Assembly (NCBI GenBank): GCA_965213885.1
Contig: OZ243919.1
Location: forward strand, 154,668 to 218,667
DNA from: Candidatus Poriferihabitaceae bacterium
Lineage (GTDB): Bacteria > Pseudomonadota > Gammaproteobacteria > Arenicellales > Poriferihabitantaceae
DNA length: 64,000 bases
Reading direction: 5' to 3'
The notes beneath the pieces were generated by a model. The model was not told where the DNA came from. It ran no database searches and saw nothing but the letters and a program-made list of their open reading frames with translations. The translations under genes and the position numbers were made by a program. Shown piece by piece: positions 7,572 to 62,302 of the stretch; position 1 is the stretch's first letter; every line of letters starts with the position of its first letter.

Positions 7572-8585
7572 TCAGGCTCCCCCAGGTGGATTTCCCCCGG
7601 AGAATGCCATGGCGAGGCGGATCGCCGAGACCAGGCTTGAGGCGCTGGCCCGGCCGCTGCCGGCGAGATCAAGCGCAGTGCCGTGATCCACGGAAGTGCG
7701 GATCAGCGGCAATCCCAGGGTGACATTGACCACCTCACCGAAGTCACGGTGCTTGACCACCGGCAAACCCTGGTCATGGTACATCGCCAGAACGGCGTCC
7801 AGATTCCCGAGCACGGACGGCGTGAATGCGGTGTCTGCCGGAAGGGGACCTGTCAGCCTCATGCCCCCGGACCTGAGGGACTGCATCACCGGGACGATGG
7901 TATCGACCTCCTCCGTTCCCATGTGGCCGCTTTCGCCGGCATGGGGGTTGAGACCGAGGACGCCGATCACCGGCCTGTGCAGTCCGTAGAGGCGGCTGAT
8001 GTCCCGGTCCACGATCTCGAGGACACGGGTCAGGTGTTCGCGGGTGATGGCCGGGGGCACTTCCGCGAGGGGCAGGTGGGTCGTCGCCAGGCAGACGCGG
8101 AGCCCGGGGCCGGCCAGCATCATCACCGGCATGTCGCCGCCGACGCGCTTCGAAATCCATTCCGTGTGCCCCCGGAAGGAGATGCCGGCATCGTTGATGA
8201 CCGCCTTGTGCACCGGGGCAGTGACCATGGCGTCGGCCCGGCCATCCAGGCACAGGTCGACTGCGGTTTCGATGCCGCGGACAACCGCCCGGGCATTCTC
8301 CGGGTCGAGGTGTCCTGCCCTGACGGCCCTGGAGCCGGGTACGTCGATGACCGGGATCAGTCCCGCACGGTGTGTCGCCGGGGGACTGCCGGGGTCGATG
8401 GTCCGGACTTCCACATCGAGTCCCAACGTGCCGGCACGCCGACGGAGGGTCTTGCTGTCTCCGAGTACGGTAATTGCGGCGGCGTGGGGTTCCGAGAGCG
8501 CCATCAGAACGATATCCGGACCGATGCCCGCCGGTTCGCCGACGGTGACGACAATTCGGGGTAGGCCGGAACGGGTCACGCCCAT
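7572..8585 (-). CDS. pdxA: 4-hydroxythreonine-4-phosphate dehydrogenase
   Basis: GEPAGIGPDI, GHTEW, TTHLPLAEVP, GLNPHAGE, TSVDHGTALDLAG motifs. Confidence 0.93.
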   Translation of the reverse strand: MGVTRSGLPRIVVTVGEPAGIGPDIVLMALSEPHAAAITVLGDSKTLRRRAGTLGLDVEVRTIDPGSPPATHRAGLIPVIDVPGSRAVRAGHLDPENARAVVRGIETAVDLCLDGRADAMVTAPVHKAVINDAGISFRGHTEWISKRVGGDMPVMMLAGPGLRVCLATTHLPLAEVPPAITREHLTRVLEIVDRDISRLYGLHRPVIGVLGLNPHAGESGHMGTEEVDTIVPVMQSLRSGGMRLTGPLPADTAFTPSVLGNLDAVLAMYHDQGLPVVKHRDFGEVVNVTLGLPLIRTSVDHGTALDLAGSGRASASSLVSAIRLAMAFSGGNPPGGA

Positions 8586-8633
8586 TGAGCGCCGGCCGGG
8601 ATGCGCGGATTTGCCCGTGGCGGTCGTATCCGC

Positions 8634-9050
8634 TCAGTCATTGACTCCCTCCAGCCAGAACAGATCGGCCTCGATCCAGCCAAACCGCTCGAAATCCACC
8701 CGGCCCCGGCGGTCGAACACTACCCCCTCGGACTGCAGCAGTCCGCGCTGTACGGAATCCCCCCGGCCGTCCTTCCGGAGGCTGATCTCCCCGCGGCTGT
8801 TGATGACCCGGTGCCAGGGAACGTTGTCCCCGGCATTCAGCGCTGCCATGGCGTAGCCCACCTGTCTCGGCCCGGTTCTGACCATTCTGGCAATTCCCCC
8901 ATAGCTGGCCACCTGCCCGGGAGGAATGCGCCGGACCACGTGGTAGATCCGCTGGTAAAGGCTTTCGCCGTTCTGGTCATCCGGCACGATGGGTCGTCTG
9001 GAGTTGGTCTTGGCATGAATTATATGGGACTTGTAAACCAGAGTTGACAA
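8634..9050 (-). CDS. Alkyltransferase-like protein (ATL; MGMT DNA-binding domain without the acceptor Cys)
   Basis: IPPGQVASYGGIA...PRQVG...VPWHRVIN: the PCHRV active site of O6-alkylguanine transferases is replaced by PWHRV, as in E. coli YbaZ/Atl. Confidence 0.75.
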   Translation of the reverse strand: MSTLVYKSHIIHAKTNSRRPIVPDDQNGESLYQRIYHVVRRIPPGQVASYGGIARMVRTGPRQVGYAMAALNAGDNVPWHRVINSRGEISLRKDGRGDSVQRGLLQSEGVVFDRRGRVDFERFGWIEADLFWLEGVND

Positions 9051-9373
9051 CCTCAGCCACCAACTTCAGGTTCATGGATGATGGTTCGCCGGAGTGGCCA
9101 ACGCCATCGCTCCTCGCCGTCCGGTTGCCCGTCTCCCCCGGTTCTTCGGGGATTGAGATTGCTCCTGGACACCCGGTTGCCGTCGCTTCCCGTTCCGGGC
9201 CAGACGCGCCCGGCGACGTCGGGACTTCCGGGATTTGCCGTCCATCCCACTCCTGGCGCCGAAGAATGTTCCGCCTGCAACCTGATTCGATTCGCCAGCC
9301 AATGGGATGCCGGATTGGCGAGAGGGCTTTGACAACGTCATCATGATGTATGAAACAATCCAGGACAAACATC

Positions 9374-9404
9374 AATCGTTTCAGGGAAAATGAAACGATT
9401 TTCC
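9374..9404. promoter_or_regulatory. Inverted repeat / weak Fur-like site in the exbB leader
   Basis: Perfect 9-bp inverted repeat aatcgtttc-N9-gaaacgatt (9374-9400). The overlapping gaaaatgaaacgattttcc matches 11/19 of the Fur consensus by eye. Confidence 0.25.
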
Positions 9405-9546
9405 AGGTTCCGCGATGGCATCAGGGTCGGGGCTGGCATCACGGAACCGGGGGAATCTCCAGGGTTCTGCAGAAGGGCATCCCGGACCGCATCGAATAGA
9501 CCCTTGGCGGTGAAATGACTACACTAGCCGACACGTTCGCAAGACA

Positions 9547-10167
9547 GTGTCCGCATCAGACATGTTTGAATTGCTCAAGGCCGGCGGCTTTCTGATTTGG
9601 CCCATTCTCCTTTGCTCCGTGATTTCACTGGCGATCATCCTGGAACGCACCCTGGCGCTGAAGTCCAGTGACGTGGCGCCGCCGGCACTGCTGGACCAGA
9701 TTCGCGACGACCTGAGGCAGGGCAGGCTGGATGCAGAAGCCATCAACGCGATCGAGGAGAATTCGCCACTGGGCAGGGTCCTGGCTGCCGGGCTGCGCAA
9801 TCCCAACCAGCACCGCGTGGTGATCAAGGAATCCATCGAGGAGGCCGGGCGGCATGTCGTGCACGACCTGGAAAGAAACCTGCCCACCCTGGGGACCATC
9901 GCCAATATCACCCCGTTACTCGGCCTCCTGGGAACCGTGATCGGCATGATCAAGGTCTTCTCCGCCATCACCACCTTCGGCGTCGGCGACCCCCAGGCCC
10001 TGGCGGAAGGTATTTCCGAAGCCCTGGTCACGACCGCGGCCGGCCTGTCGGTGGGCATTCCCAGCCTGTTGTTCTATCGCTACTTCCGCAGCAAGGTGAG
10101 TTCCCTCACCGTGGACATGGAGCAGCAGGCACTCATGTTCATGAAGATCCTGCAGCGGGAAGGTTAG
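9547..10167 (+). CDS. exbB: MotA/TolQ/ExbB proton-channel family protein
   Basis: LKAGGFLIWPILLCSVISLAIILER, ..LPTLGTIANITPLLGLLGTVIGMI.., ALVTTAAGLSVGIP motifs. GTG start; an in-frame ATG at 9562 is an alternative. Confidence 0.85.
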   Translation: MSASDMFELLKAGGFLIWPILLCSVISLAIILERTLALKSSDVAPPALLDQIRDDLRQGRLDAEAINAIEENSPLGRVLAAGLRNPNQHRVVIKESIEEAGRHVVHDLERNLPTLGTIANITPLLGLLGTVIGMIKVFSAITTFGVGDPQALAEGISEALVTTAAGLSVGIPSLLFYRYFRSKVSSLTVDMEQQALMFMKILQREG

Positions 10168-12429: not shown

Positions 12430-14778
12430 CTACCTGTGCCGGGCGAGATGCAGCCAGGTCTCCACTACCGTATCCGGGTTCAGCGACACGCTCCCGATGC
12501 CCTCGTCCATGAGCCATTGGGCAAGGTCCGGGTAGTCCGAAGGCCCCTGCCCGCAGATGCCGACATACTTGCCGGCCCGGTTGCAGGCGCGGATGGCCAT
12601 CGAGAGCATGGCCTTCACCGCCTCGTCGCGTTCGTCGAACAGGTCCGCGATGATCGCGGAGTCGCGGTCCAGGCCCAGGGTGAACTGGGTCATGTCGTTG
12701 GAGCCGATGGAAAAGCCGTCGAAGCGTTCAAGGAAATGGTCCGCGAGCACGGCGTTGGAGGGGATTTCGCACATCATGATGACCCTGAGGCCGTTCCTGC
12801 CTCGCTCCAGGCCGTTTTCCTTCAGAAGCCCGATGACCGCGTCGGCCTCGTCCAGGGTGCGCACGAAAGGAACCATGACTTCCACGTTGACGAGTCCCAT
12901 GTCGTCCCGCACCCGCCTGACCGCCTCGCATTCCATTTCAAAGCAGTCGCGGAACGATTCGGCGATATAGCGTGAGGCGCCGCGAAAGCCGAGCATGGGA
13001 TTTTCCTCTGCCGGCTCGAACAGGCTGCCTCCAAGCAGGTTGGCGTATTCGTTGGACTTGAAATCGGACAGCCGGACGATCACCGGCCTTGGGAAGAATG
13101 CCGCGCCGAGGGAGCCGACGCCCTCGACCAGCTTTTCCACGTAGAAGCTCCTTGGGTCGGCGTACCCCGCCATGCGCCGGTGGATTTCCTCGCGCAGGTC
13201 CTCCGGCATGTCGTCCTTCCGGAGCAGGGCCTTGGGGTGCACGCCGATGGTGTTGTTGATGATGAACTCCAGGCGCGCCAGGCCGACCCCATGGTTCGGA
13301 ATCCTCGAAAATGCGAAGGCCCGTTCCGGGTTGCCCACATTCATGGTGATCTTGAAACCGACCTCCGGCATCCGGTCGAGGTCGGTGGTCATGACCTCGA
13401 AATCAAGCAGGCCCGCATAGACCTTGCCGGTATCGCCCTCGGCGCAGCATGCCGTGACTTCGCTGCCGTCGGCGAGGACCCGGGTGGCATTCCCGCAACC
13501 CACGATGGCGGGCACACCCAGCTCCCGCGCGATGATGGCGGCATGGCAGGTGCGGCCGCCACGGTCGGTGACGATGGCCGCCGCCCTCTTCATCACCGGC
13601 TCCCAGTCCGGGTCCGTCATGTCGGTGACCAGCACGTCGCCGGGCTCCACCCTGTGGAGGTCGTCCACGTTTGGGACAATCCGGACCCTGCCGGTGCCGA
13701 TGCGCTGACCCACGCTGCGGCCGGTAACCAGCACCTCGCCGTCCTCCCTGAGGCGGAACCGCTCCAGGAGATTGCCGCTGTCCCGGCTGCGCACGGTCTC
13801 CGGACGGGCCTGGAGAATCATCAGTTCCCCGGTTTCGCCGTCCTTGCCCCATTCGATGTCCATGGGGCGGCCGTAGTGCTCCTCGATGGCCACGGCCATC
13901 TTCGCAAGCTCCGTGACGTCCCCGTCGGTGATGGAAAACGCGTATTGCCGGGCCGGGTCCACATCGATGGTCTCAACCGTCCTTTCGGACCCTTCGGGCG
14001 CGTACACCATCTTGATCAGCTTCGAGCCCCGGGTGCGACGCAGGATTGCGGGCCGGCCGGCCGCCAGGGCTGGCTTGTAGACATAGAATTCATCCGGGTT
14101 CACGGAGCCCTGCACCACGCACTCCCCGAGCCCCCAGGAGGCGGTGATGAACACCGCTTCCTCGAAGCCGGACTCGGTGTCGATGGTGAACATGACGCCG
14201 CTGGCGCCCAGGTCGCTGCGGACCATGCGCTGGATGCCGGCGGAAAGGGCCACGTCGGCATGGGCGAAGCCCTGGTGCACCCGGTAGGCGATGGCGCGAT
14301 CATTGAACAGGGACGCGAACACCTCCCGGACACGGTGGAGCACCTGGTCGATGCCGCGAACGTTGAGAAAGCTTTCCTGCTGCCCGGCGAAGGAGGCTTC
14401 CGGCAGGTCCTCGGCGGTGGCTGAGGACCGTACCGCAACACTGCCGCCAAGGGTGTCGTAGGCTTCACGGATGGATCGTTCCAGCGCCGCGGGAAGGGGA
14501 TGATTCATGACCATGCCGCGTATGGATGCGCCGGCTTCCCTGAGATCCGCCAGGTTGTCGACATCCAGGGAATCGAGGATCGCGCCGATGTTCCCGCCGA
14601 GGTCCCCATGCCCGATGAAGGCGCGGTAGGCATCCGCGGTGGTGGCGAATCCATCGGGGACCCGGATGCCCGCCGATGACAGGCCAGAAATCAATTCCCC
14701 GAGCGAGGCGTTTTTTCCTCCGACACGGGGTACATCGTCCATCCCCAGGTCATGAAACCAGACAATCCACTCAGTCAA
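12430..14778 (-). CDS. ppsA: Phosphoenolpyruvate synthase
   Basis: [25 protein letters not shown] (phospho-His loop), SIGSNDMTQ; 782 aa. Confidence 0.97.
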
Positions 14779-49355: not shown

Positions 49356-49790
49356 TCAGGGGTTTCGATGTCCAACATCCATCACCGGGAGCCTGAAACG
49401 GAGATTCTCTTCGATCCCGACCATGGTCGATCGCTCCGCCGGGGCAAATTCACGCAACCGGTCAATGACATCCTCGACCATGTCCTCCGGCGCCGAGGCG
49501 CCGGAAGTCTGCCCGACAGAGACTACATCTTCGAACCATTCCTTCTCGATGGCGTCAACATGTCTACCAGATCGCCCGGAGTTCCGGCTTCGGCTCCCGA
49601 TTTCTCGAAGCCGGTTGCAGTTGGAACGGTTGTGTGCTCCGACCACCAGGATGAGGTCGACGATCGCAGTCAGCTTGCGAACCGCAGCCTGGCGATTCTG
49701 CGTGGCATAACAGATGTCCGTTTCCAACGGAAAGTGCGCCTGACGCGGGAGAAATTCCCCGATGGGGGCCTGGGGTAAAATCCGGCACCT
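49356..49790 (-). pseudogene. ispH: Fragment of ispH/lytB (HMBPP reductase), C-terminal ~45% only
   Basis: ..TDICYATQNRQAAVRKL..VDLILVVGAHNRSNCNRL..IEKEWFEDVVSVGQTSGASAPEDMVEDVIDRL is colinear with the E. coli IspH C-terminal part (DICYATTNRQEAV..VVGSKNSSNSNRL..VGVTAGASAPD). The N-terminal half, with two of the three cluster cysteines, is absent. Confidence 0.65.
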
Positions 49791-50295
49791 CCGGCAACGG
49801 GAGATCCGGAAAACCAGCCTGTACGTCATCCCCCCCCGGGGTAAAGGTATTCCACGGCCCTCCGAATACCGTTCCTTTACTGAAGAATTGATCTACAGCC
49901 CGATTCCCTTAGTCCTAGTGTTTGGTAGGGAGTTCCGATTAGAATATCTCTTGTCTGGCTGTTCCGGGGGGATTCAGGTTGATTGAAGTGGCTGTCACCG
50001 GACTGACGTATTGGCTGTTGTGGAGCAGGCTGGCACCGTCTGGTGCAACCTTGTCGGGCGAGAGTGCATCCTCGCACCGATGACGGAAGGATATTTCAGC
50101 GAGATGCCGACTATTCGATACGCAAACCGGACCGGTCATTCACCACTCCGTCGAAACCCTCATTTCCAGGCATCAGTCCTGTCGGTAACCCCGACAGGCG
50201 CTACATACCAGCTACGATCAGGCGTTACTTCCCGGAAATTCCCGATACCAGAACGATAAAATCCAATCATTCAAATTCCCCAATCAGGATCCTGG

Positions 50296-50457
50296 ATGAC
50301 CTCTAGAGCGAGTACATCTTCCGGTTCTTCGGCGCCACCCGTTCTCGTTACCGGCTCAGCCGGGCATGTGGGCGCCAATCTCGTTCGCCGACTGTTCGCC
50401 GATGGAACCAGGGTACGGGTGTTGCTGAGGCACGAGGACAACAACGAGGCACTGGAT
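50296..50457 (+). pseudogene. N-terminal fragment of an NAD(P)-dependent epimerase/dehydratase-type SDR, joined to the CYP51 remnant
   Basis: PPVLVTGSAGHVGANLVRRLFADGTRVRVLLRH: Rossmann TGxxGxxG start only (~50 codons). After it the sequence switches to CYP51 homology in another frame. Confidence 0.45.
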
Positions 50458-51171
50458 GGTGTTCACGGTCCCCATCTTTGGACGTGGCGTGGCCTACGAC
50501 GTCACGTCCGAGCTCATGGCCGAGCAACTGGGTTTTCTGTATCCGGCGCTTCGCGAATCCGCAATGTGCAGGGTTGCCCATCATGCTCGAGGAGCGCGCC
50601 CGGTTTGCCGACAACCTGGGTGAACAGGGAATTGTCGATCTGCCACGCGATGAATGAACTGACCGTCAAGATCGCCAGCCGGTGCCTCATCGGAGGGGAA
50701 GTCCGGGAACGGGTGGACTCGGATTTTGCCGATGCCGACCACGAACTGCAAAACGGCATCAACACCCTGGGCTTCTTTCTCCCCAGGCTTCCAACCCCTG
50801 CGCACCGTTCCCGTGACCGGGCCCGGCAGGAAGTGGCCGAGCTCTTCAGCGAGGTCATGGCCGAACGTCGGTGCTCCGGAGTCCAGGCCGATGATTTCAT
50901 GCAGACCCTCATGCGCGCCCGGTACAAGGATGGCAGGGCGTTGCGCGACGAAGAGATTACCGGCATCCTGCTGACGGTGCTGTTCGCGGGCCAGTACACG
51001 AGTGCCGTGCTCGCAACCTGGACCGTGCTTCTCGACCGGTTCGATTTTCAGATCGACACCGCATCTCCCGCGCCGAGCTATGGCAGCTGGGTCACCGGCC
51101 CACGGGAACCGTGCAGGCTCCGTTACCGCCGGCACTCACTCACGGGTGTATTTCGAAGAACGGTCTCATGA
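50458..51171 (+). pseudogene. cyp51: Sterol 14-alpha-demethylase (CYP51) remnant: 5'-truncated, frameshifted, internally deleted
   Basis: Segments in different frames read FTVPIFGRGVAYDV..ELMAEQLGFL / PIMLEERARFADNLGEQGIVDL / NELTVKIASRCLIGGEVRE..FADADHELQNGIN..FFLPRLPTPAHRSRDRARQEV..DFMQTLMRARYKDGRALRDEEITGILLTVLFAGQYTSAVLATWTVLL. The sequence then jumps directly to DRFDFQID..PAPSYGSWVTGPREPCRLRYRR. This is colinear with M. tuberculosis CYP51 as recalled (PIFGEGVVFD.., ELTIYTSSACLIGKKFR.., FAGHHTSS.., EYEFEM..PACVRYRRR). About 170 residues, including the Cys heme-ligand loop, are missing. Confidence 0.7.
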
Positions 51172-54100
51172 CCCGGCGCTACGACGTTGTCATCGTTGGA
51201 GCGGGGCCGGTCGGCAGTTTGTGCGCGCTTGCCCATGCACGGAAAGGGGCCAGGGTGGCCTTGCTCGAAGCGAATCCCAAGGCCGCCCAAAGGCTGGCGG
51301 GCGAATGGCTGCATCCCCCCGCCGTGAGAATACTGCGCGACCTCGGGGTTGAAATCGATGTGCAGACCCGGAAACCGACGGGTAAGGGGTTTGCGATATT
51401 TCCGGAAGATCACACGGAGCCGATCGTCTTTCCTTATCCGGACGGGACCCGCGGATTGACATTCGAGCACGCCTCTCTCGTCTCAAGCCTACATGAGGCG
51501 GTAGAAAACAACCCGAATATTGAACTGCTTCTTCAGGCCCGGGTGCATACGGTTGAGGACGGCCAGGTCATCTATTCACGCAACGGCAACGATGAAGCCC
51601 TGACAGTCCCCCGGGTCATCGGCGCCGACGGCCAGGCTTCCGTCGTCCGCAAATCGCTGGGTCTGTCGATCAGCCCGTTGATCTCCTCGTGGACGGTCGG
51701 GCTCCTGTTGACCGGGGTGAAGCTGCCACTCGAGGGGTATGGCCATGTGCTGCTTGGCGGTCCGGGCCCAATGCTGATTTACCGCCTGGGCGAGCATCAT
51801 GTCAGGCTGATCGTCGATGTCCCGCTGAACCACACGGCACCCAGGGATCGGATCGGATTCCTGCTGGACTCGTATACCGATTTGTTGCCGGAATCGCTCC
51901 GATCCGCGTTTGTGGAGGCCCTGCGGGTGAGGAACTTCCAGGTTGCGGCGAACAAGCTGAGACCGCACGCCACCTACGGAAGTTCGCATCGCGTGCTGAT
52001 TGGCGATGCTGCCGGGCACTATCATCCGATGACGGCGATGGGAATGACCTTCGGTTTCGGCGATGCGCTCTCGCTGGCCGAGTGCGGGGATTTTCGCGAA
52101 TTCACCGCCAGTCGCTTCCGGGCGACCCGGACCCCTTCGTTTCTCGCGATGGGCCTGTACGAGGTCTTTGCCGATCATCGGTTCGAGGCGGTGGCGGTCC
52201 GGCACGCGATTTACCGCAGCGCCCGGGCAAATCCCGCATTCCGCGACCGCACCGTGCGTTTTCTCGCCTGTGAAGACACCTCCGCGGTCCGCATAGGTAT
52301 CGCCGCTTTCGGAACGGTGGCCCGCGCGGTTTCCGGGCAGATTCCGCGATCCCATGACCGGCTTGCCTGGCGCAAGGCCCGAGACGTCAATCAGGCCCTT
52401 GCCGTCCGTCTCGGATGGCTGTTGCGAAGCATCTGGCAACTGTACAGGGCGAGAAGCCATACAGGGGAGATTGACGGACGGACCTGGAGCGCATTGGCAG
52501 GCGTGTTTCCGAACTCCATGCCGCAGAAAGTCCGCGGCTCCCGGCCCAGCCGCCCGCAGGCGGGCGCTTCGATTGACGCATATCCGGCATTGCAGAGTGC
52601 GACCAGGCGCCTCTTGGATCTGCAGGGTGAGGACGGGGACTGGGAAGGGGAAATGGTCTGGTGTCCCATGCTCACGGCGCAATACGTGCTGCTGCATCAC
52701 ATCATCGAAAAGCCGCTCGAGCCCGGCCGGCGACTGCGCGTGCTGCGCTCGTTCGCACAAACCCGCCACGAGGATGGCTTGTGGGGCATGCATGAACACT
52801 CGCAACCCCATCTGTTCGTCACCACGCTGGTGTACGTCGCGGCCAGACTGCTCGGTCTCCAGCGAAATGATCCGATGCTCGGGCCGGCCCGTCGTTTCCT
52901 GCAGGCAGAGGGGGTTCTCGGTATTCCGAGTTGGGGGAAGTTCTGGCTGGCGCTGCTGAATCTCTATGACTGGCGCGGTGTCAACGCCATTCTTCCGGAG
53001 TTGTGGACTTTGCCGCGATGGGTCGCGATTCATCCCTCGAACTGGTACTGCCATACCCGGCTCATCTACATGGCGATGTCGGCGATCTACCCGCAACGGT
53101 TCCAGGCATCCGTGACCCCCGTGATCGCGTCGTTAAGGGAGGAACTCTTTCCCCAGGGATTTGCGAATGTCGATTTTTCCACGGCCGGCGGCCGCTTGCG
53201 CGACGATGACCTCTACGCGCCCCCGGGTGTGTGGCTGCGGTCCGGATACAGGTTTGCAAGGCTGTATGAACGATACCACCACAAACGCCTCCGCAGCCGG
53301 TGTCTGGATTCGATCAACCGGCGAATCAAGTGGGAGTTGCAGACCACCGACCACACGAGCATCTCCCCGGTCAGCGGGATCCTCAATATCCTTGCCCTGT
53401 GGTTGCGTGATCCGGACGATTCCGACTGTCACCGGGCGCTGGAGCGGCTGGATGGCTGGATCTGGGAGGACGAGGAACATGGGGCGCGGGTCACCGGTGC
53501 GAGAAGCGCTTCGTGGGATACGGGGTTCGCCCTTCAGGCCCTGGGGACTGTGCCCGATATCGATGGCGTCGAAATCGCCATGTCAGCCGGAGCCGACTTC
53601 CTTCGCCGGCAACAGATCCGTACCAGCTTCGAAGGGTTTCGCGAGGCCTACCGGAATGACCCCAAGGGAGGCTGGTGTTTTGCCGGGGGGTGGCATGGCT
53701 GGCCCGTGACGGACTGTACCGCGGAAGCGGTGCTGGGGCTGACCGCGGTCCAGCGCGAGGACACGGATACCGCAATGCTCGGCGATGCGGTTCGCTTCAT
53801 GATGCGCGGCCAAAACCGCGATGGTGGTTTTGGCAGTTACGAGGCGCGGCGCTCCATGCTTGGCCTCGAATGGCTGAACCCGGCCGAGATGTTTGGCGAC
53901 TCGATGACCGAGCGTTCCTACGTCGAGTGCACCGCGTCCTGTCTGGCAGCCTTTGCCGCCTGCGGGGAGGATCTCCCGAAGACCACCAATCAGGCGGTCA
54001 TGAAGGCGATCGCGCGTGCGGATGCCTGGCTTCGCAGGTCCCAGGCATGCGACGGGTCCTGGCGTGGTGTATGGGGCGTCCAGTTCATCTATGGTACGTT

Positions 54101-54632
54101 TTTCGGGATCCGGGGCCTGCTTGCCGCCGGAGCGCTTCCAGGTGATCCGGCATTGCGCCTGGCCTGCCGGTGGCTGCTGGATCGCCAGCGCAGCGATGGT
54201 GGATGGGGTGAGCATCACAGCGGCTGCCTGTCCGGCCGATACGTCGCGCACGAGGAAAGCCAGGTCATTCAGACGGCTTGGGCCATGATCGCGCTGCTGG
54301 AGGCGGAAGATTCGAACTGGAACGCGATTTCAGAGGGCGCCCGGTTTTTGCTGGACGCACAGCATGCGGATGGGTCCTGGCCCAGGCAGGACATGGCCGG
54401 TGTCTTCTTTCGCACGGCCCTGCTGGATTACGTACTGTACCGGCAGTACTTCCCACTGCATGCGCTCGGTCTCTATGAGCAGCGTCGTCGGGTCAGGCTG
54501 GAACTGACGACTCCCGCCAGTGTGGACGTCGACACGGGAACCGCAGCGGGGGAAGATACTTCGAAGCACTGTACGGGCCGGGCCGTACGTTCGGGGTCAG
54601 CCGCAGCTATGCATCTTGCGAAACAGCGCTAG
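51168..54632 (+). CDS. Fusion protein: squalene monooxygenase (epoxidase)-like flavoprotein plus oxidosqualene cyclase
   Basis: N-terminal half: YDVVIVGAGPVGS, GEWLHPPAVRILRDLG, IGADGQASVVRKSL, LIGDAAGHYHPMTAMGMTFGFGDA. C-terminal half: SWGKFWLALLNLYDWRGVN, HPSNWYCHTRLIYMAMS, SASWDTGFALQAL, GGWHGWPVTDCTAEA, QNRDGGFGSYE, YVECTASCL, QACDGSWRGVWGVQFIYGT, QRSDGGWGEH, QHADGSWPRQDMAGVF. The frame is uninterrupted. The ATG at 51168 overlaps the stop of the CYP51 remnant (ATGA). Confidence 0.85.
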   Translation: MTRRYDVVIVGAGPVGSLCALAHARKGARVALLEANPKAAQRLAGEWLHPPAVRILRDLGVEIDVQTRKPTGKGFAIFPEDHTEPIVFPYPDGTRGLTFEHASLVSSLHEAVENNPNIELLLQARVHTVEDGQVIYSRNGNDEALTVPRVIGADGQASVVRKSLGLSISPLISSWTVGLLLTGVKLPLEGYGHVLLGGPGPMLIYRLGEHHVRLIVDVPLNHTAPRDRIGFLLDSYTDLLPESLRSAFVEALRVRNFQVAANKLRPHATYGSSHRVLIGDAAGHYHPMTAMGMTFGFGDALSLAECGDFREFTASRFRATRTPSFLAMGLYEVFADHRFEAVAVRHAIYRSARANPAFRDRTVRFLACEDTSAVRIGIAAFGTVARAVSGQIPRSHDRLAWRKARDVNQALAVRLGWLLRSIWQLYRARSHTGEIDGRTWSALAGVFPNSMPQKVRGSRPSRPQAGASIDAYPALQSATRRLLDLQGEDGDWEGEMVWCPMLTAQYVLLHHIIEKPLEPGRRLRVLRSFAQTRHEDGLWGMHEHSQPHLFVTTLVYVAARLLGLQRNDPMLGPARRFLQAEGVLGIPSWGKFWLALLNLYDWRGVNAILPELWTLPRWVAIHPSNWYCHTRLIYMAMSAIYPQRFQASVTPVIASLREELFPQGFANVDFSTAGGRLRDDDLYAPPGVWLRSGYRFARLYERYHHKRLRSRCLDSINRRIKWELQTTDHTSISPVSGILNILALWLRDPDDSDCHRALERLDGWIWEDEEHGARVTGARSASWDTGFALQALGTVPDIDGVEIAMSAGADFLRRQQIRTSFEGFREAYRNDPKGGWCFAGGWHGWPVTDCTAEAVLGLTAVQREDTDTAMLGDAVRFMMRGQNRDGGFGSYEARRSMLGLEWLNPAEMFGDSMTERSYVECTASCLAAFAACGEDLPKTTNQAVMKAIARADAWLRRSQACDGSWRGVWGVQFIYGTFFGIRGLLAAGALPGDPALRLACRWLLDRQRSDGGWGEHHSGCLSGRYVAHEESQVIQTAWAMIALLEAEDSNWNAISEGARFLLDAQHADGSWPRQDMAGVFFRTALLDYVLYRQYFPLHALGLYEQRRRVRLELTTPASVDVDTGTAAGEDTSKHCTGRAVRSGSAAAMHLAKQR

Positions 54633-55665
54633 CCGAAGTTTCGGGCCGGGCGCCATTCCCTTCTTCCTCAGTTTCCCGGGCACCGGGTTTGCGGGCCAGG
54701 AAGAAAAACATGGGCGCGAAAACACCGGACTCGCCACCTTCGACCAGGGAATCCGCCCCTGATTCAACAACCTGCTGATCTCGGCGGTGCCTTTCGGAAC
54801 CACTCGCACCCTCTCGGCGACCCGCAACACCAGATTGGTCAGGAACCGGCCCGCCGGTGTGCGCGGCATGCCTGAAAGACTGAAATCACGACCCTGCAAT
54901 GCCCGGTACCAGGGCGTTTCCGGGTCCGACTCGGCGGCAACGTCGCGACCCTCCAGGAGTTCGAACCCGGCCGCGCGAAGTGCATCGCAGACCTCCGACG
55001 TGCCGGCGATATCCGGCAGTCCGTTGCCTGTTTCAATTTCCTTCTTGATCCGCAGATGCGCTTCGTTCTGCGGATCAAAGTGTTCCGTAAGACACCACTC
55101 GTAGGGCGCAGGACGCGGAAGATCTCCCCGCATGCGGCTGTCTTGTCCGGTGCGTGGGGCATGGACTCGATGGCGATGGTGCTGTCATAGCAGCCATCGT
55201 CTTCGGGTATCTGCATGTAGTCGCCGTGAATGAATCCGCACAATGACTGGATGTCCCGGGTGTGCAGCCTGGCGCGTTCGATCTGGTAGGCGTTATTGTT
55301 GATCCCGACGAATCCGGCCCCGGAATCACGGGCCAGGTTGGACATCGGTCCCCCGACTCCGCAACCCACGTCCAGCACCCGCATCCCCGGCCCGAGGGAC
55401 AACCGGTCAGCAAGATACTTCTGGTGCCTGAGAAGCGAAGCCTTCAGGTTCTCGCCCCGCCGCCGGGGGGCAAAGTGAAAGGACCGGCCCCAGCCAAATT
55501 CGTAGAAATCGGTTGCCAGGTCGCAGTAGTGATTGACGAGCATCACATGGCGTTCCTTATCTTCGCTCCGGCATCGTGAAGTTCTGTGTATTGGGCGACC
55601 ACGGAGTTCACTTCATCCGGGGCGATGTCTCCAAGGGACCGGGACTCCGGCTGCTTGACGGGTCC
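54608..55665 (-). pseudogene. Sterol C-24 methyltransferase (ERG6/SMT-like), multiply frameshifted
   Basis: Colinear pieces lie in different minus frames: DEVNSVVAQYTELHDAG / EDKERHVMLVNHYCDLATDFYEFGWGRSFHFAP..LDVGCGVGGP..GINNNAYQIERA..AIESMPHAPDK..GEIFRVLRP / YEWCLTEHFDPQNEAHLRIKKEIETGNGLPDI..PWYRAL.. / ADSLVEGGESGVFAPMFFFLARKPG. At least 3 frame changes. The 3' end overlaps the cyclase 3' end convergently. Confidence 0.7.
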
Positions 55666-56137
55666 ATGGGGTGATCGATTGTCTTGCGTGGTTCCCACGA
55701 TTTCATAAACCTGTGTTCGATTCCCGGAAAATTTCTACGGTATCTGGCTGATATGACAATATCAATTTCCCGGAGTCTTCCAGGGGAGGTGAACCTGAAG
55801 GCTGCAGTGTCGAATCATAGGGAATCGACGGGGAAATTGCATGCCGGACAGGATGGGATTCGGGCATCTTCGTCCGGGCCTCACGCTTCGAGATCGAACC
55901 CGGACACCGGGAACAGCAGAATCACTGCAAAGGACTATCCGAGAGTATCCAGTCACATGCCCGAACACCGCACTGATCAGGCACTTCCCGAACAGGAGGC
56001 AGGACATGCCCGCCTGACGATCTCTGCGGGACTGTTCGTGACGCTGTTCATCGTGACCGCGTCTCTTGCCTGTATCGGCACCCGCACCCGCACCCGCTAT
56101 TTTGCCTTTGGGAACCTGGACCGGTGTTTGCGTGCGT

Positions 56138-56872
56138 TCAGGGCAGGCTCAGTCGTGTCATCCGCCCACCGTCGACGGTATACACTTGTCCGGTAATGAA
56201 CCCGGCCTCATCAGCGGCAAGAAAGGCGACGAGGCTTGCCACTTCTTCCGGCGTTCCGGTCCGTCCGACCGGGTGGACCCGGCCGATGCCCTGTCGAAAC
56301 GCGGACGGATCAGGCATTGTGTCGATAAAAGCGAGGTTCAGTTCGGTGTCGATCCAACCGGGTGCCACGGCATTGCAACGCACGCCATCCTTTCCATGAT
56401 CGACGGCGACCGCACGGGTCAGACCATGCAGCCCGGCCTTGGTCGCACAATAGGCTGCGTGGTTCGGGTTCGATCCCAGTCCCTCGATCGAGCCGGTATT
56501 GACGATGCTGCCCTGGGTCTTCCGTAAGTGCGGAAGGGCGGCCTTGATCATCAGGAACGGTGCTGTGAGGTTCACCGCGATGTTGCGGGTCCAGTCCTCG
56601 ACGCTCATGTCCTCGATGCCTGCTTCCTGCATCATACCGGCGTTGTTCACCAGCACGTTCAGTTGCCCGGTGCGAGCGACGACATCGGCAATGACGCGCT
56701 CGGGCGTTCCGGGGTCGGACAGGTCCGCCTCAATCCCCTCGAAATCATCGTCAGACCCCCGCTGCGCCGTGAACACCCGGGCACCTTCGTCCCGGAGGCG
56801 CTTGGCAATGGCGCGACCGATACCTGACCGGCCCCCAGTCACGAGCGCGACTTTCCCCTCGAAACGCTTCAT
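56138..56872 (-). CDS. Short-chain dehydrogenase/reductase
   Basis: KVALVTGGRSGIGRAIA, NNAG, S..YCATKAG (YxxxK). I placed the start at the ATG overlapping the upstream stop (ATGA); the track start is 56914. Confidence 0.85.
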   Translation of the reverse strand: MKRFEGKVALVTGGRSGIGRAIAKRLRDEGARVFTAQRGSDDDFEGIEADLSDPGTPERVIADVVARTGQLNVLVNNAGMMQEAGIEDMSVEDWTRNIAVNLTAPFLMIKAALPHLRKTQGSIVNTGSIEGLGSNPNHAAYCATKAGLHGLTRAVAVDHGKDGVRCNAVAPGWIDTELNLAFIDTMPDPSAFRQGIGRVHPVGRTGTPEEVASLVAFLAADEAGFITGQVYTVDGGRMTRLSLP

Positions 56873-57603
56873 GACACGGGCTTTCCGCCGTTCACCTCGA
56901 CCAGGGCGCCGCACATGTACCGGGACGCATCGGACGCCAGAAAAAGAACGACATCGGTAATGTCCTCGGGTTCGGCGATGCGTCCGATGGGTACAGTCTT
57001 GCCCAGTTCCAGAACCGCCGTGTCCGGGTCATAGCCTCGCTTGGCAAAGCCAGTGCGCAACATCGGTGTGTTAACCTCGTTCGGGCAGACCGCGTTGATG
57101 CGGATACCCTGATGGGCGTGATCCATGCCCATGCACTGGGTCAAAGCGGCAATCGCCGCCTTGGTCATACAATAAAGCGCATGATCAGGTCCGGGGGCTT
57201 TGCCACCCCAGCACGATGCGGTGTTCACGATCACGCCGCCCCCTGCGTCGGCCATAAGAGGGATTGCCGCGCGGCAAATCCGGAACGGTGCCGCGACGTT
57301 GACACCAAGCGACAGATCCCAGTCGGCATCGGCTGTATCAGTCACCTTGCCGCGGGTGATGACCCCGGCGTTATTGATCACGATGTCGAGCCCGCCCAAT
57401 GCCTTGACCGCAGCCTGCGGCAAACCATCGGCATAAGCGGGGTCGAGCAGGTCGCCGGGCAGATGCGCGTTAGCCTCGATCCCATCGACAATGCGGTCTG
57501 CAGCTGCCACGTGTGCACCCTGCGCACGCAGGGCTTTGACAAGTGCACCGCCGATACCGCCAGCGGCCCCGGTCACCAGAGCTTTTTTTCCATCAAAGCT
57601 CAT
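56869..57603 (-). CDS. Short-chain dehydrogenase/reductase
   Basis: KKALVTGAAGGIGGALV, NNAG, YCMTKAA. Confidence 0.85.
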   Translation of the reverse strand: MSFDGKKALVTGAAGGIGGALVKALRAQGAHVAAADRIVDGIEANAHLPGDLLDPAYADGLPQAAVKALGGLDIVINNAGVITRGKVTDTADADWDLSLGVNVAAPFRICRAAIPLMADAGGGVIVNTASCWGGKAPGPDHALYCMTKAAIAALTQCMGMDHAHQGIRINAVCPNEVNTPMLRTGFAKRGYDPDTAVLELGKTVPIGRIAEPEDITDVVLFLASDASRYMCGALVEVNGGKPVS

Positions 57604-57615
57604 TTTTCTTCGTTT

Positions 57616-58767
57616 TCAAAAACTTGCGATCGGGTCGCCAAACAGTGTTACGTCCGGAACCACGCCAAGCCCCGGCCCCTCTGGCAGCGCGATATGGCCG
57701 CCTTCGATCCGAATGCTGTTTTGGGCGTCGTAGTGTCCGTCGATATAGGGCGCGGCCAGCCACGCCCCTTCGCATAGCTCGGGGCGGGTGGTAGCCGCAA
57801 CATGGGTGCAGGCCGCCGCGATGACGTCACCGCCCCACGCATCATCACACGTGTGGGGCAGGTTCCGCGCCTCGCAGATATCACGGAAGGTGCGCATGTG
57901 TTGCAGCCCGCCAATGCGCGTTACTTTCATGCCAAACCCGTCGACGAGATTGGTGCCGACCGCACTAAGGACGGTGTTCAGATCCACGCTGTTTTCGTCC
58001 ATGTAGATCGCATGGGCAATCTGCGGGCGGATCTTGCGCAGGTCCTCGACGGTATTGCACGGTTGTTCCATGATAAAGGGGACATCGGGGCATTCCCGGC
58101 TGACGCGCAGCGCATCGCGCGTGGTCCATCCCCGATTTCCGTCGATGGCCAACCGGATGCCGGAACCTCGGATATTCTCCCAGACCTTGCGGATCGTCTC
58201 AATATCAATTTCAACCGGGCGACCGCCCAACTTGATCTGGAGGCGTGGGTACCCTTCAGCGCCCTTTTGTTGGGCCAGTCGAGCAATGTCGTCAGGTGCA
58301 CCAACACCGACCGCGTAATACGACGGCACACGTTCCGTAACGGCTCCCCCAAGCAAATCCGCCACACGGACGCCCAGCTTCTTGCCCAAAAGGTCATGAG
58401 CGGCGATGTCAATCGCGGCTTTCGCGTAGTTGTGTCCATTAAGGCGCGCGTTCATCCGCTGATGTAGGATTACTGGCCAAAGCTCCGCCCCGATCAACCC
58501 TGGCGCAATCTTGGCCAGCGCGGCCAGCGCGCCTGCCGCATGCGCTTCTGCATAGGTGGAGCCGACCGGACAGGTTTCGCCCCAGCCTTCAGTCCCATCC
58601 TCGGCCACCAGACGCACCAACGTCGTGTCGAGCGTCCAGACATTGGCATTGGCCATCACATAGGGGCCATTCTTAACCGGCAAGTCGTGTCGGTAGATGT
58701 GCATCTCGCGGATACGCATCGACCTTCGGTGGGCTGTTTTAGCCTCGCTTGGCTTAGGTTGGTTCAT
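57616..58767 (-). CDS. Enolase-superfamily enzyme (mandelate racemase / muconate lactonizing family)
   Basis: Capping domain (..[15 protein letters not shown]..), [14 protein letters not shown], barrel metal-ligand contexts (..LAIDGNRGW.., ..IMEQP.., ..IYMDE..). An alternative start lies at 58719. Confidence 0.8.
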
Positions 58768-59093
58768 GTCAGGCCCTCTGTGTCCAAAGTTGCGCGGGGT
58801 GCTTCCAGGGCAGCGGTCTTCGCGTCCGACGGGGTTTGCAGACGGGCCATGTCTGTCATTCCTTCGTGCAAGAGAAAAGGGTCTGAGCGATGTGACGGGT
58901 ATCCCTGTCGGGTGAGATGCGCTCTAAATAGACGCGGAACTCATTCGCCTTCACCGGTACGAAACGGGGGGGAGCATGAAGGCTTCCCGGGCCGGACCCG
59001 GTCTTCTCCGCCGGGCGCGAAACACCGGGGCTCCTTCGCGCGAGTAAGGCTTGCCGCATCACCTGTTACTGATTCCGGCAATGTTCCTGGCGT

Positions 59094-60016: not shown

Positions 60017-62302
60017 TCAATCCGTGGTTACGGGACTCCCTTCGCCGTTCGGGGCGAGATCGACAAGGCAACTGTGTGCGCTGCAGCCCTGGCCCAGCCG
60101 TGAAGTGCCCGCATCCCGGGTCAGCACATTTGGATTGCCTTGGGTATCGGTTCCATCGTCGTCGGGATCGAACCAGCTCCCGGTGGACAATGCGACCACG
60201 CCGGGCATGATATCCCCGCTGACCACCGCCCGAGCAAGACAGATGCCACGGGCGTTGTAGAGCTTCACCGGGTCTCCATGGCGGATGCCGCGGGCATCGG
60301 CATCGACCGGGTTGACCGTCACCGGCGCCGGGCGCTCCCCCGGCAGGTCGGCGATGGCGCATTCGAGTTGGCTGTGAAGCTTGTCCCCGGGCTGGGGTGA
60401 GACCAGATGCAACGGATACCGCCCGATGTTGCCGCGCCATTCTTCCGGTGGCATCCAGGTCGGATGGCCGGGGCAGTCGTCGTAACCGAATCCGTCGATG
60501 GTCTCGGAAAAGATCTCGATTCTCCCCGAGGGCGTGTCCAGCGGCGCCTCCTCGGGATCCTTCCTGAATGCGGCGAACGGTGTCAGGGCATGTTCCGGTC
60601 CCCGTACCGGCAGATCGATCCAGTTGCTCGACCTGAGTTCCTCCAGGTCAGGCACTTCGATTCCCCGTGCGGCATTGTATTCCCGGAACTGCCGGTAGAG
60701 GTGGTCGATCCAGTCACTGCTGTCCCGGCCTTCGGTGAATTGCTCGCCAAATCCCAGGCGGGCGGCGAGGTCGCTGAAAATATCGTAGTCGTTCCGTGCC
60801 TCCCCCACGGGCCCGATCATTCCCGGCATGTGAATCAGGTAGGAGTCCCCCCGGGCCCAGCCGATGTCCTCCCGTTCCCACGGGGTCGTCGCAGGGAACA
60901 CGATGTCCGCCCGTTTTGCGGTAGCGGTCCACCATGGCTCGTGCACGATGACGGTTTCGGGGCACTGCCAGGCCCGGTGAAGCCGGTGAAGATCCTGGTG
61001 ATGGTGAAAAGGGTTGCCGCCGCACCAGTACACCAGGCGGATGTCGGGATAGGTCAGATGCCTGCCGTTGAAATCGAACGGCATCCCGGGATTGAGCAGC
61101 ATGTCCGCGATGCGGGCCACCGGTATCGCGGTGCCGACCGGATTGCGGCCCTGGGGGAAGGTGAGGCCGTCCATGCGCCGGACCGAGACGCCGATGCCGC
61201 CGATGGCGCCGTAACCGTAACCGACGCCGCCCCCCGGAAGCCCGATCTGCCCCAGCATCGCGGCCAGTACCGCAGCCATCCAGTAGGGCTGTTCGCCGTG
61301 TTCCGCGCGCTGCAGCGCCCAGGACACGGTGATCAGGGTTCGCTCCCGGGCCATGTCCCGAGCCAGTTGGCGGATTCGTTCCGCGTGGATGCCGGTGAGA
61401 CTCCCGGCCCATTCCGGTGTCTTGGGCCGGCCATCGGACTCCCCCGTGAGGTAGGCCCTGAACCGCGGATAGCCCGTGGTGCAACGTGCCAGGAAATGCC
61501 GGTCAAGCAGTTCCTCGGTCTCCAGCACGTAGGCCAGTGCGAGCATGAGCGCGGTGTCGCTTCCGGGGACTACGGGCACCCATTCCGCCCCGTCCGGTGC
61601 GTCTGTCCTCTGGGGTGCGATGTTGATCCGTCTGATCCCCCTGCAGGCGAACTCGTCGAACCAGGTCCGGGTTTCGTGATGCGTCACGCCGCCCATGCTG
61701 ACCTGGGAGTTTTTCGGGTTGATTCCGCCGAACATCACCAGCAGGCGGGTATGTTCCGCGATGGTCGGCCAGGCGTTCTGATTGCCCCAGAAGAGCTTCA
61801 GGAAGTTCATGCCGAATACATGGGGTATGATGGCCTGGGCGGCGGCGGTGCTGTAACTCGCGACCGATGCCACATACCCGCCGGCGCAGTTGAGAAAGCG
61901 GTGGACCTGTCCCAGCGCATGGTGAAAGCGCCCGGCGCTTGCCCAGCCGTAGGAACCGCCGAAGATGGACTCGTTGCCGTGACGCCTGCGCACCCGGTCG
62001 ATCTCCCGGGCGGCAATGTCCAGCGCCTCGTCCCAGGGCAGTTCCACGAACGTGTCCTCCCCCCTCGGGGCATCGCGAAGCCCGGCCTGTCCCGGCCCGT
62101 GTTCAAGCCATCCACGGCGAACAGATGGCTTCCGGACACGCTTGCGGTGATGCACCGCGGCCGGCAGGATACCGGAGATCGACGATGGACACGGGTCGTT
62201 TTCGAATGGAGCCACGGCGGCAATGCGGCCGTTCTGTGTGGTAACCCGGAAGGCACCCCAGTGACTGGAGGTGACACGCGTGACTGAATGGTTCTTGCTC
62301 AT
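60017..62302 (-). CDS. Cytoplasmic molybdopterin oxidoreductase, BisC/TorZ-like S-/N-oxide reductase family
   Basis: No Tat signal. N-terminus ..SSHWGAFRVTTQNGRIAAVAPFENDP..VRKPSVRRGWLE resembles the BisC N-terminus. 761 aa with a C-terminal beta-barrel (..VTVNPVDADARGIRHGDPVKLYNARG). Confidence 0.8.
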   Translation of the reverse strand: MSKNHSVTRVTSSHWGAFRVTTQNGRIAAVAPFENDPCPSSISGILPAAVHHRKRVRKPSVRRGWLEHGPGQAGLRDAPRGEDTFVELPWDEALDIAAREIDRVRRRHGNESIFGGSYGWASAGRFHHALGQVHRFLNCAGGYVASVASYSTAAAQAIIPHVFGMNFLKLFWGNQNAWPTIAEHTRLLVMFGGINPKNSQVSMGGVTHHETRTWFDEFACRGIRRINIAPQRTDAPDGAEWVPVVPGSDTALMLALAYVLETEELLDRHFLARCTTGYPRFRAYLTGESDGRPKTPEWAGSLTGIHAERIRQLARDMARERTLITVSWALQRAEHGEQPYWMAAVLAAMLGQIGLPGGGVGYGYGAIGGIGVSVRRMDGLTFPQGRNPVGTAIPVARIADMLLNPGMPFDFNGRHLTYPDIRLVYWCGGNPFHHHQDLHRLHRAWQCPETVIVHEPWWTATAKRADIVFPATTPWEREDIGWARGDSYLIHMPGMIGPVGEARNDYDIFSDLAARLGFGEQFTEGRDSSDWIDHLYRQFREYNAARGIEVPDLEELRSSNWIDLPVRGPEHALTPFAAFRKDPEEAPLDTPSGRIEIFSETIDGFGYDDCPGHPTWMPPEEWRGNIGRYPLHLVSPQPGDKLHSQLECAIADLPGERPAPVTVNPVDADARGIRHGDPVKLYNARGICLARAVVSGDIMPGVVALSTGSWFDPDDDGTDTQGNPNVLTRDAGTSRLGQGCSAHSCLVDLAPNGEGSPVTTD

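Follow-up and report, generated by a model that had tools for sequence, protein, structure and literature searches.

Is the open reading frame (ORF) that directly precedes a fused epoxidase-cyclase gene in this 64-kb stretch of DNA (contig OZ243919.1 of a Candidatus Poriferihabitaceae bacterium; the whole stretch is called the window below) still a working sterol-tailoring gene, or is it what remains of one? The ORF, at 50296..51171 on the forward strand, is 291 codons long. A preliminary description, made from the letters of the sequence, regarded it as a sterol 14-demethylase gene (cyp51) reduced to a chimeric remnant. We have compared the locus with its orthologs in related genomes, as that description proposed, and obtained exact breakpoints. 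The ORF is a chimeric pseudogene in which the start of an SdmB-like gene is fused to a cyp51 remnant. We put at roughly 90% the probability that it is a non-functional remnant, left by the stepwise decay of a sterol operon that was acquired horizontally and is of a type known from sponge symbionts.

The relatives used for comparison are 80 loci (L001-L080), found with the fusion protein as query in a scan that took a single genome for each species. They come from metagenome-assembled genomes (MAGs) of many phyla, several of them sponge-associated, and the fusion protein shows 63-86% amino acid identity among them. Labels in this set include Gammaproteobacteria, Alphaproteobacteria, Binatia, Nitrospirales, Acidimicrobiales, Bryobacterales, Gemmatimonadetes, Opitutales and Tepidiformaceae; such a spread of the fused epoxidase-cyclase fits the horizontal transfer already reported for the cluster. 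The closest loci to the window are L001, a Candidatus Poriferihabitaceae chromosome (Arenicellales, Gammaproteobacteria), and L002. The L002 operon is uninterrupted, in the order sdmB (SdmB-like SDR), sdmA (SdmA-like Rieske oxygenase), ERG24-type reductase, cyp51 and squalene monooxygenase-oxidosqualene cyclase fusion (SQMO::OSC), with a sterol C-24 methyltransferase (SMT) gene downstream on the opposite strand. Positions 49913-55731 of the window are collinear with both L001 and L002 apart from two deletions, and cluster synteny is thus retained. The L002 operon served as the intact reference for lesions in sdmB and cyp51 and the L001 SMT gene (13494-14555) for those in SMT, while CYP51 residues are numbered after the closest intact ortholog, P0002 (473 aa). 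The blastn alignment of this part of the window to L002 falls into three blocks:

Window 50214-50460, L002 2474-2720: block 1, 86% identity
Window 50461-51025, L002 6166-6734: block 2, 91% identity, E=0
Window 51018 onward, L002 7150 onward: block 3, 88% identity

The ORF and the leader ahead of it are composed of the following pieces:

49913..50295, forward strand: conserved non-coding leader ahead of the first operon gene; L001 248-635 and L002 2197-2559, 80-82% nucleotide identity
50296..50460, forward strand: 5' stub, 55 codons (MTSRASTSSGSSAPPVLVTGSAGHVGANLV...EALDG), of an SdmB-like short-chain dehydrogenase/reductase (SDR) gene; L002 2556-2720, 86% nucleotide identity, 47/55 amino acids
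50460..50461, forward strand: junction of deletion 1, where 3,445 bp are gone relative to L002 2721-6165 and sdmB codon 55 passes to cyp51 codon 96
50461..50579, forward strand: cyp51 segment A (FTVPIFGRGVAYD...CRVA), one frame off the sdmB start; L002 6166-6284, 91% nucleotide identity
50580..50645, forward strand: cyp51 segment B (IMLEERARFADNLGEQGIVDLP), in the third frame, between two 2-bp deletions; from gapped blastn and translation
50646..51017, forward strand: cyp51 segment C (AMNELTVKIAS...AGQYTSAVLA), in the frame of the sdmB ATG, ending in the I helix; from alignment and translation
51018..51025, forward strand: the one remaining copy of the 8-bp direct repeat CTGGACCG, present in two copies in the intact genes; junction of deletion 2
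51026..51171, forward strand: C-terminal cyp51 segment (VLLDRFDFQIDTASPAPSYGSWVTGPREPCRLRYRR...) with the TGA stop; L002 7158-7303, 88% nucleotide identity, aligned to the CYP51 C-terminus in a PDB search

The likeness of the window to both L001 and L002 begins at 49913. The SDR stub had been described as about 50 codons of a Rossmann start, possibly of a C-4 demethylation-type or HpnA-type reductase and too short to say which. A Rossmann start it is, with a weak Pfam Epimerase match (E=1e-3); what settles its origin is orthology, its likeness to the L002 SDR gene at the 5' end, and not this match. The stub is the 5' part of the gene that opens the operon. The L002 SDR, of 381 aa, matches Pfam Epimerase and 3Beta_HSD, and SdmB is its top NCBIfam hit (306 bits, curated cut-off 600) ahead of HpnA (234 bits, cut-off 368), both being under cut-off. 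Similarity to CYP51 had been placed at about 50458, in another frame; its onset is in fact at 50461/50462, in the next frame. Pfam p450 covers ORF residues 113-245 (E=2e-8). When the CYP51-like pieces are joined and compared with solved structures, all top matches are CYP51s, the best being 6q2c (E=2e-44, residues 84-277 and 413-453); the CYP51 matches range from E=2e-44 to 1e-20 and those to other P450s have E>1e-11, which places the remnant with CYP51. Right after ...AGQYTSAVLATWTVLL, the DNA passes into the CYP51 C-terminus. Also as described earlier, the stop of the ORF overlaps the start of the epoxidase-cyclase gene: the TGA at 51169-51171 and the ATG at 51168-51170 together form ATGA at 51168-51171.

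Deletion 1 removed the remainder of sdmB, the whole of sdmA, the whole of the ERG4/ERG24-type reductase gene and cyp51 codons 1-95, and the microhomology at its junction is at most 2 bp. In L002, the sdmA gene adjoins the SDR gene and encodes a Rieske oxygenase with SdmA, 4-beta-methylsterol monooxygenase, as top NCBIfam match (401 bits, cut-off 600); the third gene of that operon is an ERG4/ERG24-family sterol reductase. Deletion 2, of 423 bp, is in frame and corresponds to 141 codons. It lies between two copies of CTGGACCG, of which the intact genes hold a pair (L002 6727-6734 and 7150-7157, with a corresponding pair in L001) and the window a single one, and it takes with it the ExxR motif (residue 329), the PERF motif (378) and the heme loop FGGGKHRCMG (403-412). 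The N-terminal loss reported in the preliminary description is therefore real, but amounts to 95 codons and not about 80; the internal gap does include the cysteine heme loop, but spans 141 codons and not about 170. At least two frame changes had been expected. The count is exactly two, each due to the loss of 2 bp compared with the orthologs, one at 50579/50580 (GCCCGGATC>GCCCATC) and one at 50645/50646 (CTGCCGAGCGCG>CTGCCACGCG). The I-helix signature (A/G)GQHTS reads AGQYTS in the window, the histidine being present in 10/10 outgroups and in L001 and L002. Thus the remnant has neither the heme-loop cysteine, nor ExxR/PERF, nor the I-helix histidine, nor an open frame of ~450-470 codons. Two findings would have spoken against a CYP51 remnant, a complete CYP51 with the FxxGxxxCxG loop or a lack of any CYP51 similarity, and neither was seen, as the loop falls inside the 423-bp deletion and the similarity is strong. 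By tblastn there is no further cyp51, sdmA or reductase anywhere in the 64-kb window, to which these copy searches were confined.

In the decay of this locus, the 3,445-bp deletion joined sdmB codon 55 to cyp51 codon 96. The 423-bp deletion, whose position between the two repeat copies is a signature of slippage or microhomology-mediated deletion, took out the K-helix to L-helix core and the heme-ligand cysteine, and the two 2-bp deletions each shifted the cyp51 frame.

The remaining segments have also diverged. Polarised by ten outgroup orthologs, the remnant has 15 amino acid changes of its own and L002 has 1 (binomial p=5e-4). Of the 15, six affect sites invariant in all ten outgroups, among them the I-helix His>Tyr. 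Three-point branch lengths give a nonsynonymous divergence (dN) of 0.042 for the window and 0.009 for L002. The 15:1 excess and the difference in dN show relaxed constraint on the remnant's own branch. The pairwise ratio of nonsynonymous to synonymous divergence (dN/dS) of the remnant is 0.19, and the bulk of the divergence is therefore older than the inactivation; as a rough estimate, between a quarter and a third of the time elapsed since divergence from the L001/L002 lineage would fall in the pseudogene phase. With both large deletions located to the exact base by comparison with an intact ortholog, the heme loop absent, the I-helix signature altered and constraint relaxed, the earlier conclusion that 14-demethylation is lost at this locus is borne out.

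The decay extends beyond cyp51 and spares one gene. The other members of the cluster in the window are:

51168..54632, forward strand: intact squalene monooxygenase-oxidosqualene cyclase fusion, 1154 aa, with Pfam SE, FAD_binding_3 and SQHop_cyclase N and C domains
54661..55698, reverse strand: SMT pseudogene, from comparison with the intact L001 SMT
55957..56121, forward strand: stub of an EBP-like membrane-protein gene, ~51 codons of 244, with tblastn matches to residues 1-51 only

The fusion protein matches oxidosqualene cyclase in NCBIfam with 717 bits and keeps the FAD motif GAGPVG at residue 11 and the catalytic DCTAE at residue 849. It departs from the consensus of an 81-sequence alignment at 2/353 near-invariant positions, which is a typical value. 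Its omega is 0.21-0.23 in pairwise comparison with L001 and L002, and ~0.27 on its own branch. In ~1.75 kb of dead genes at least 5 frameshifting indel sites are present; the same density would give ~10 over the 3.46 kb of the fusion gene, where 0 are seen (Poisson P ~5e-5). Taken together, the omega values, the few deviations, the intact motifs and the lack of frameshifts argue that purifying selection has maintained the fusion gene intact while its partner genes decayed.

The SMT gene differs from its L001 counterpart by indels of -5/+1 bp near the N-terminus, -19 bp mid-gene and +1/-2 bp near the C-terminus, amounting to at least 3 frameshifting sites, and its Pfam methyltransferase and Sterol_MT_C domains fall on two separate ORFs. 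The EBP-like gene is full-length (244 aa) in 31 of the 80 related loci, including L001 (14901-15635). The intact protein has no Pfam match even at E=10, and none that is meaningful in NCBIfam or in PDB sequence and profile searches. Its family counts at least 763 proteins, and every name among the best 120 is 'hypothetical protein'. An AlphaFold model of this polytopic protein (pLDDT 84) matches the human EBP entries 8w0r and 6oht in the PDB with TM-scores of 0.49-0.58 and a Foldseek probability of 0.99-1.00, all non-EBP matches having TM-scores of 0.3 or less. Human EBP is the delta8-delta7 sterol isomerase, and the modelled fold makes it probable that the 244-aa protein is a bacterial sterol isomerase of EBP-like type that has so far gone unrecognised. 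The damage to the cluster had therefore been understated, as the SdmA-like Rieske gene, the ERG4/ERG24-type reductase gene, the SMT gene and the EBP-like gene are also lost or dead. The fusion gene alone is retained intact. To judge from its genes, the locus should have lost demethylation at C-14 and at C-4, reduction of the C-14 double bond, isomerisation and C-24 methylation. Because all tailoring genes are dead or deleted and the fusion gene is kept, its predicted output would be at most the conversion of squalene to a protosterol such as lanosterol or cycloartenol.

In one of every four related loci, cyp51 has likewise been lost or damaged next to a conserved fusion gene. A full-length cyp51 abuts the fusion gene in 60/80 loci, mostly with an NTGA overlap, and 54/80 have the canonical order SDR-(Rieske)-ERG24-CYP51-LSS. 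In the other 20/80, cyp51 is absent (16/80), partial or frameshifted (3/80) or singly lost (1/80). These include further independent lesions beside an intact fusion gene: L061 has a cyp51 frameshift (8576-9990), L058 internal cyp51 deletions (9499-9983) and L075 a 5' truncation of cyp51 (8796-9935). The single loss, upstream of 9974 in L079, is clean, with sdmB, sdmA and the reductase gene retained. At least 10 of the cyp51-less loci have a C-terminal cyp51 stub of ~10-33 codons directly ahead of the fusion start, ending in NTGA; these stubs were read in the ~100 nt before that start, near 9880-9990 of each locus. They comprise the Acidimicrobiia-type loci L019, L020, L026, L038, L056, L059 and L073, together with L046, L069 and L077, all with the fusion gene but none of the tailoring genes. 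Because the C-terminal stub remains, these loci must descend from full operons by deletion. Selection on the Acidimicrobiia-type stubs was considered and found no support, their divergence being close to that of synonymous sites in the neighbouring fusion gene; nothing more than protection of the start region need be invoked to explain why they persist. It is conceivable, if doubtful, that the sterol operon has been streamlined repeatedly, in independent lineages, to a protosterol module of epoxidase-cyclase only, by deletions that always spare the cyp51 3' end carrying the initiation context of the fusion gene, and that the window is an intermediate caught mid-way. If so, many cluster-bearing symbionts would supply only protosterols, or pass them to the host or to neighbours, and not finished or side-chain-alkylated sterols.

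The junction between remnant and fusion gene bears on the expression of the latter. The preliminary description held that the old operon junction is preserved, and it is: the NTGA overlap of cyp51 and fusion gene is the rule in the related loci, and the ATGA of the window is a stop/start overlap of the kind found in translationally coupled gene pairs. The sdmB gene keeps an AGGA Shine-Dalgarno-like site (50286-50289), six bases ahead of its ATG, and ~380 bp of sequence upstream of this ATG have counterparts in L001 and L002 only. The sdmB promoter and ribosome-binding site, now 870 bp upstream of the fusion gene, may supply the expression context, and since the chimeric ORF is open as far as the ATGA, ribosomes from the sdmB site could run through it and terminate on the fusion start codon. 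No promoter-like site was detected in 49700-51400 and no sigma-70 consensus in the leader, in a scan that is itself uninformative; one terminator-like site on the opposite strand in 49700-51400 is within chance expectation. Translational coupling as a residue of the old operon design is plausible but unproven, and the remnant itself is predicted to have no enzymatic role.

Several points weigh against this account of decay around a maintained fusion gene. The lesions rest on a single assembly, the one public protein that matches the remnant (P0001, 188 aa) being a gene call of this very genome, and the copy search covered the 64-kb window only, so intact tailoring genes elsewhere in the genome are possible. 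The leader or coupling role is weakly supported, with no promoter detected and with an ORF open through to the ATGA expected by chance in ~9% of cases (1/3 x 0.26). In other lineages, the cyp51 stubs change about as fast as synonymous sites of the fusion gene beside them. We think it tentatively possible, with the odds clearly against it, that the chimeric ORF has been selected as a translated leader, in which the 2-bp deletions are compensatory and enable re-initiation at a fusion gene that has no strong Shine-Dalgarno site of its own. Reverting either 2-bp deletion makes the sdmB-initiated ORF stop at codon 109-119, ~520-550 nt before the fusion ATG; the fusion start (TTTCGAAGAACGGTCTCATGA) has no clear Shine-Dalgarno site, whereas sdmB retains its AGGA; the NTGA overlap is kept in most loci; and even cyp51-less loci hold a C-terminal stub. 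Yet the ~9% chance expectation makes the compensatory frame not significant, the dN/dS of the Acidimicrobiia-group stubs is 0.5-1, and indels are frequent in the adjoining dead SMT gene as well.

The other explanations concern the reality of the lesions, their consequence for the organism and the state of the fusion gene. That the true operon is intact, and that the lesions stem from collapsed strains or base-calling errors, is highly improbable. A MAG may mix several strains, indels of 2 bp may arise as sequencing errors, and no independent contig carries the same protein. However, errors of this sort do not explain the 15:1 excess of lineage-specific replacements in the remaining segments, nor the change of the CYP51-signature histidine to tyrosine. 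They would also have had to produce the 19-bp and other indels of SMT and the truncation of a third gene, yet leave 3.46 kb of fusion gene clean. Moreover, the 2-bp deletions lie outside long homopolymers (the longest adjacent run is 3-4 bases), and the 8-bp repeat at the 423-bp junction is far below assembler k-mer size. It is rather unlikely, though far from negligible, that another tailoring set or a whole second cluster elsewhere lets the organism keep sterol tailoring, this locus decaying because it is spare. The cluster moves horizontally between phyla (PMC9531527, and the range of fusion protein identities given above), which makes double acquisition plausible, and the analysis covered 64 kb of a contig of at least 3.56 Mb. 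A complete second cluster, however, would make the fusion gene spare too, and yet purifying selection on it persists; among the best 120 CYP51 relatives of the remnant no other is on the source contig, a weak argument given that 513 further matches exist. Finally, the whole operon could be dead, the fusion gene having merely not yet been hit, and this we regard as quite improbable. Five or six partner genes have all been destroyed, and the omega of the fusion branch is slightly higher in the window lineage (~0.27 vs ~0.19). The ~10 frameshifts expected at dead-gene density and not seen, and the agreement with consensus at all but two of the near-invariant positions, speak against it. In addition, 16 related loci keep the fusion gene alone, so the fusion-only state looks stable. 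We therefore retain stepwise decay of the tailoring genes around a maintained fusion gene as the best explanation.

The flanks of the cluster show traces of rearrangement. To the right, a 2.9-kb segment of the window (56086-59013) that holds a pair of classical SDR genes and one gene of the enolase superfamily (MR/MLE) stands in place of ~680 bp of L001 that form the 3' part of the EBP-like gene; by this comparison, the decayed cluster has its right-hand breakpoint here. To the left, a truncated IspH/LytB gene at 49386-49730 on the reverse strand matches E. coli IspH residues 191-305 only (Pfam LYTB 173-266 of 267) and ends ~180 bp from the onset of similarity to the L001/L002 sterol cluster; it may be a leftover of cluster integration or rearrangement. 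No tRNA or integration site was found at the sterol cluster of the window, and the GC content is 0.56-0.66 all along, with no compositional step at the cluster. In L001, sdmB is interrupted by ~4.6 kb with transposase genes (L001 1041-5326), whose products unite a DruA-like N-terminal domain and DDE transposase domains, and a similar transposase-sized insert (L001 17631-19886) splits the counterpart of an ORF that is continuous at 60017-62302 of the window.

Bacterial sterol clusters of sponge microbiomes figure in the debate on a symbiont origin of sponge biomarker sterols (for example the 24-isopropylcholestane precursors). A cyclase or a P450- or SMT-like ORF in a MAG does not amount to a complete pathway; the public gene call at this locus, P0001, is a 188-aa P450 fragment, although all tailoring steps here are dead. 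Inventories of sterol-capable symbionts should therefore score integrity and not hits.

Related clusters have been described twice. Kelly et al. 2022 (PMC9531527) reported clusters of steroid genes (CSGs) in Ircinia sponge symbionts of ~10 phyla, horizontally transferred and described as under purifying selection; the word pseudogene is absent from that paper. The order is the same in the Ircinia CSG and in the window cluster, with a DFR-annotated SDR gene and ERG24-CYP51-LSS on one strand and SMT1/ERG6 on the opposite strand. Unlike the Ircinia CSG, the window has all genes but the cyclase fusion deleted or broken. Brown et al. 2023 (PMC10070321) described sponge-symbiont clusters with SMT, sdmA/sdmB and fused SMO/OSC, the SMTs being active in vitro. 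Their components, including the fused SMO/OSC with adjoining SMTs, are those of the window cluster; unlike theirs, the window cluster has no sdmA, and its SMT carries at least 3 frameshifting indel sites. Neither PMC9531527 nor PMC10070321 reports sterol clusters of sponge symbionts in pseudogenised form, a search of the available literature found no such report, and a triterpenoid-cyclase preprint has nothing on an epoxidase-cyclase fusion.

Among solved CYP51s (6q2c; Methylococcus capsulatus 6mcw and 6mi0; M. tuberculosis 1e9x), the remnant aligns to residues ~84-277 and ~413-453 with E=2e-44 to 1e-25. Unlike them, it is without the N-terminal 95 residues, ExxR, PERF and the cysteine loop, and has two frameshifts and a substituted I-helix histidine. 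Some bacteria make protosterols only, for example Gemmata obscuriglobus (lanosterol and parkeol). The gene set left at this locus, epoxidase and cyclase with no tailoring genes, would correspond to such a Gemmata-type protosterol phenotype. Unlike the Gemmata type, the state of the window is secondary, reached by decay of a full tailoring operon, and its two enzymes are fused. The locus is a degraded member of a known cluster type, and its decay is ordinary pseudogene biology.

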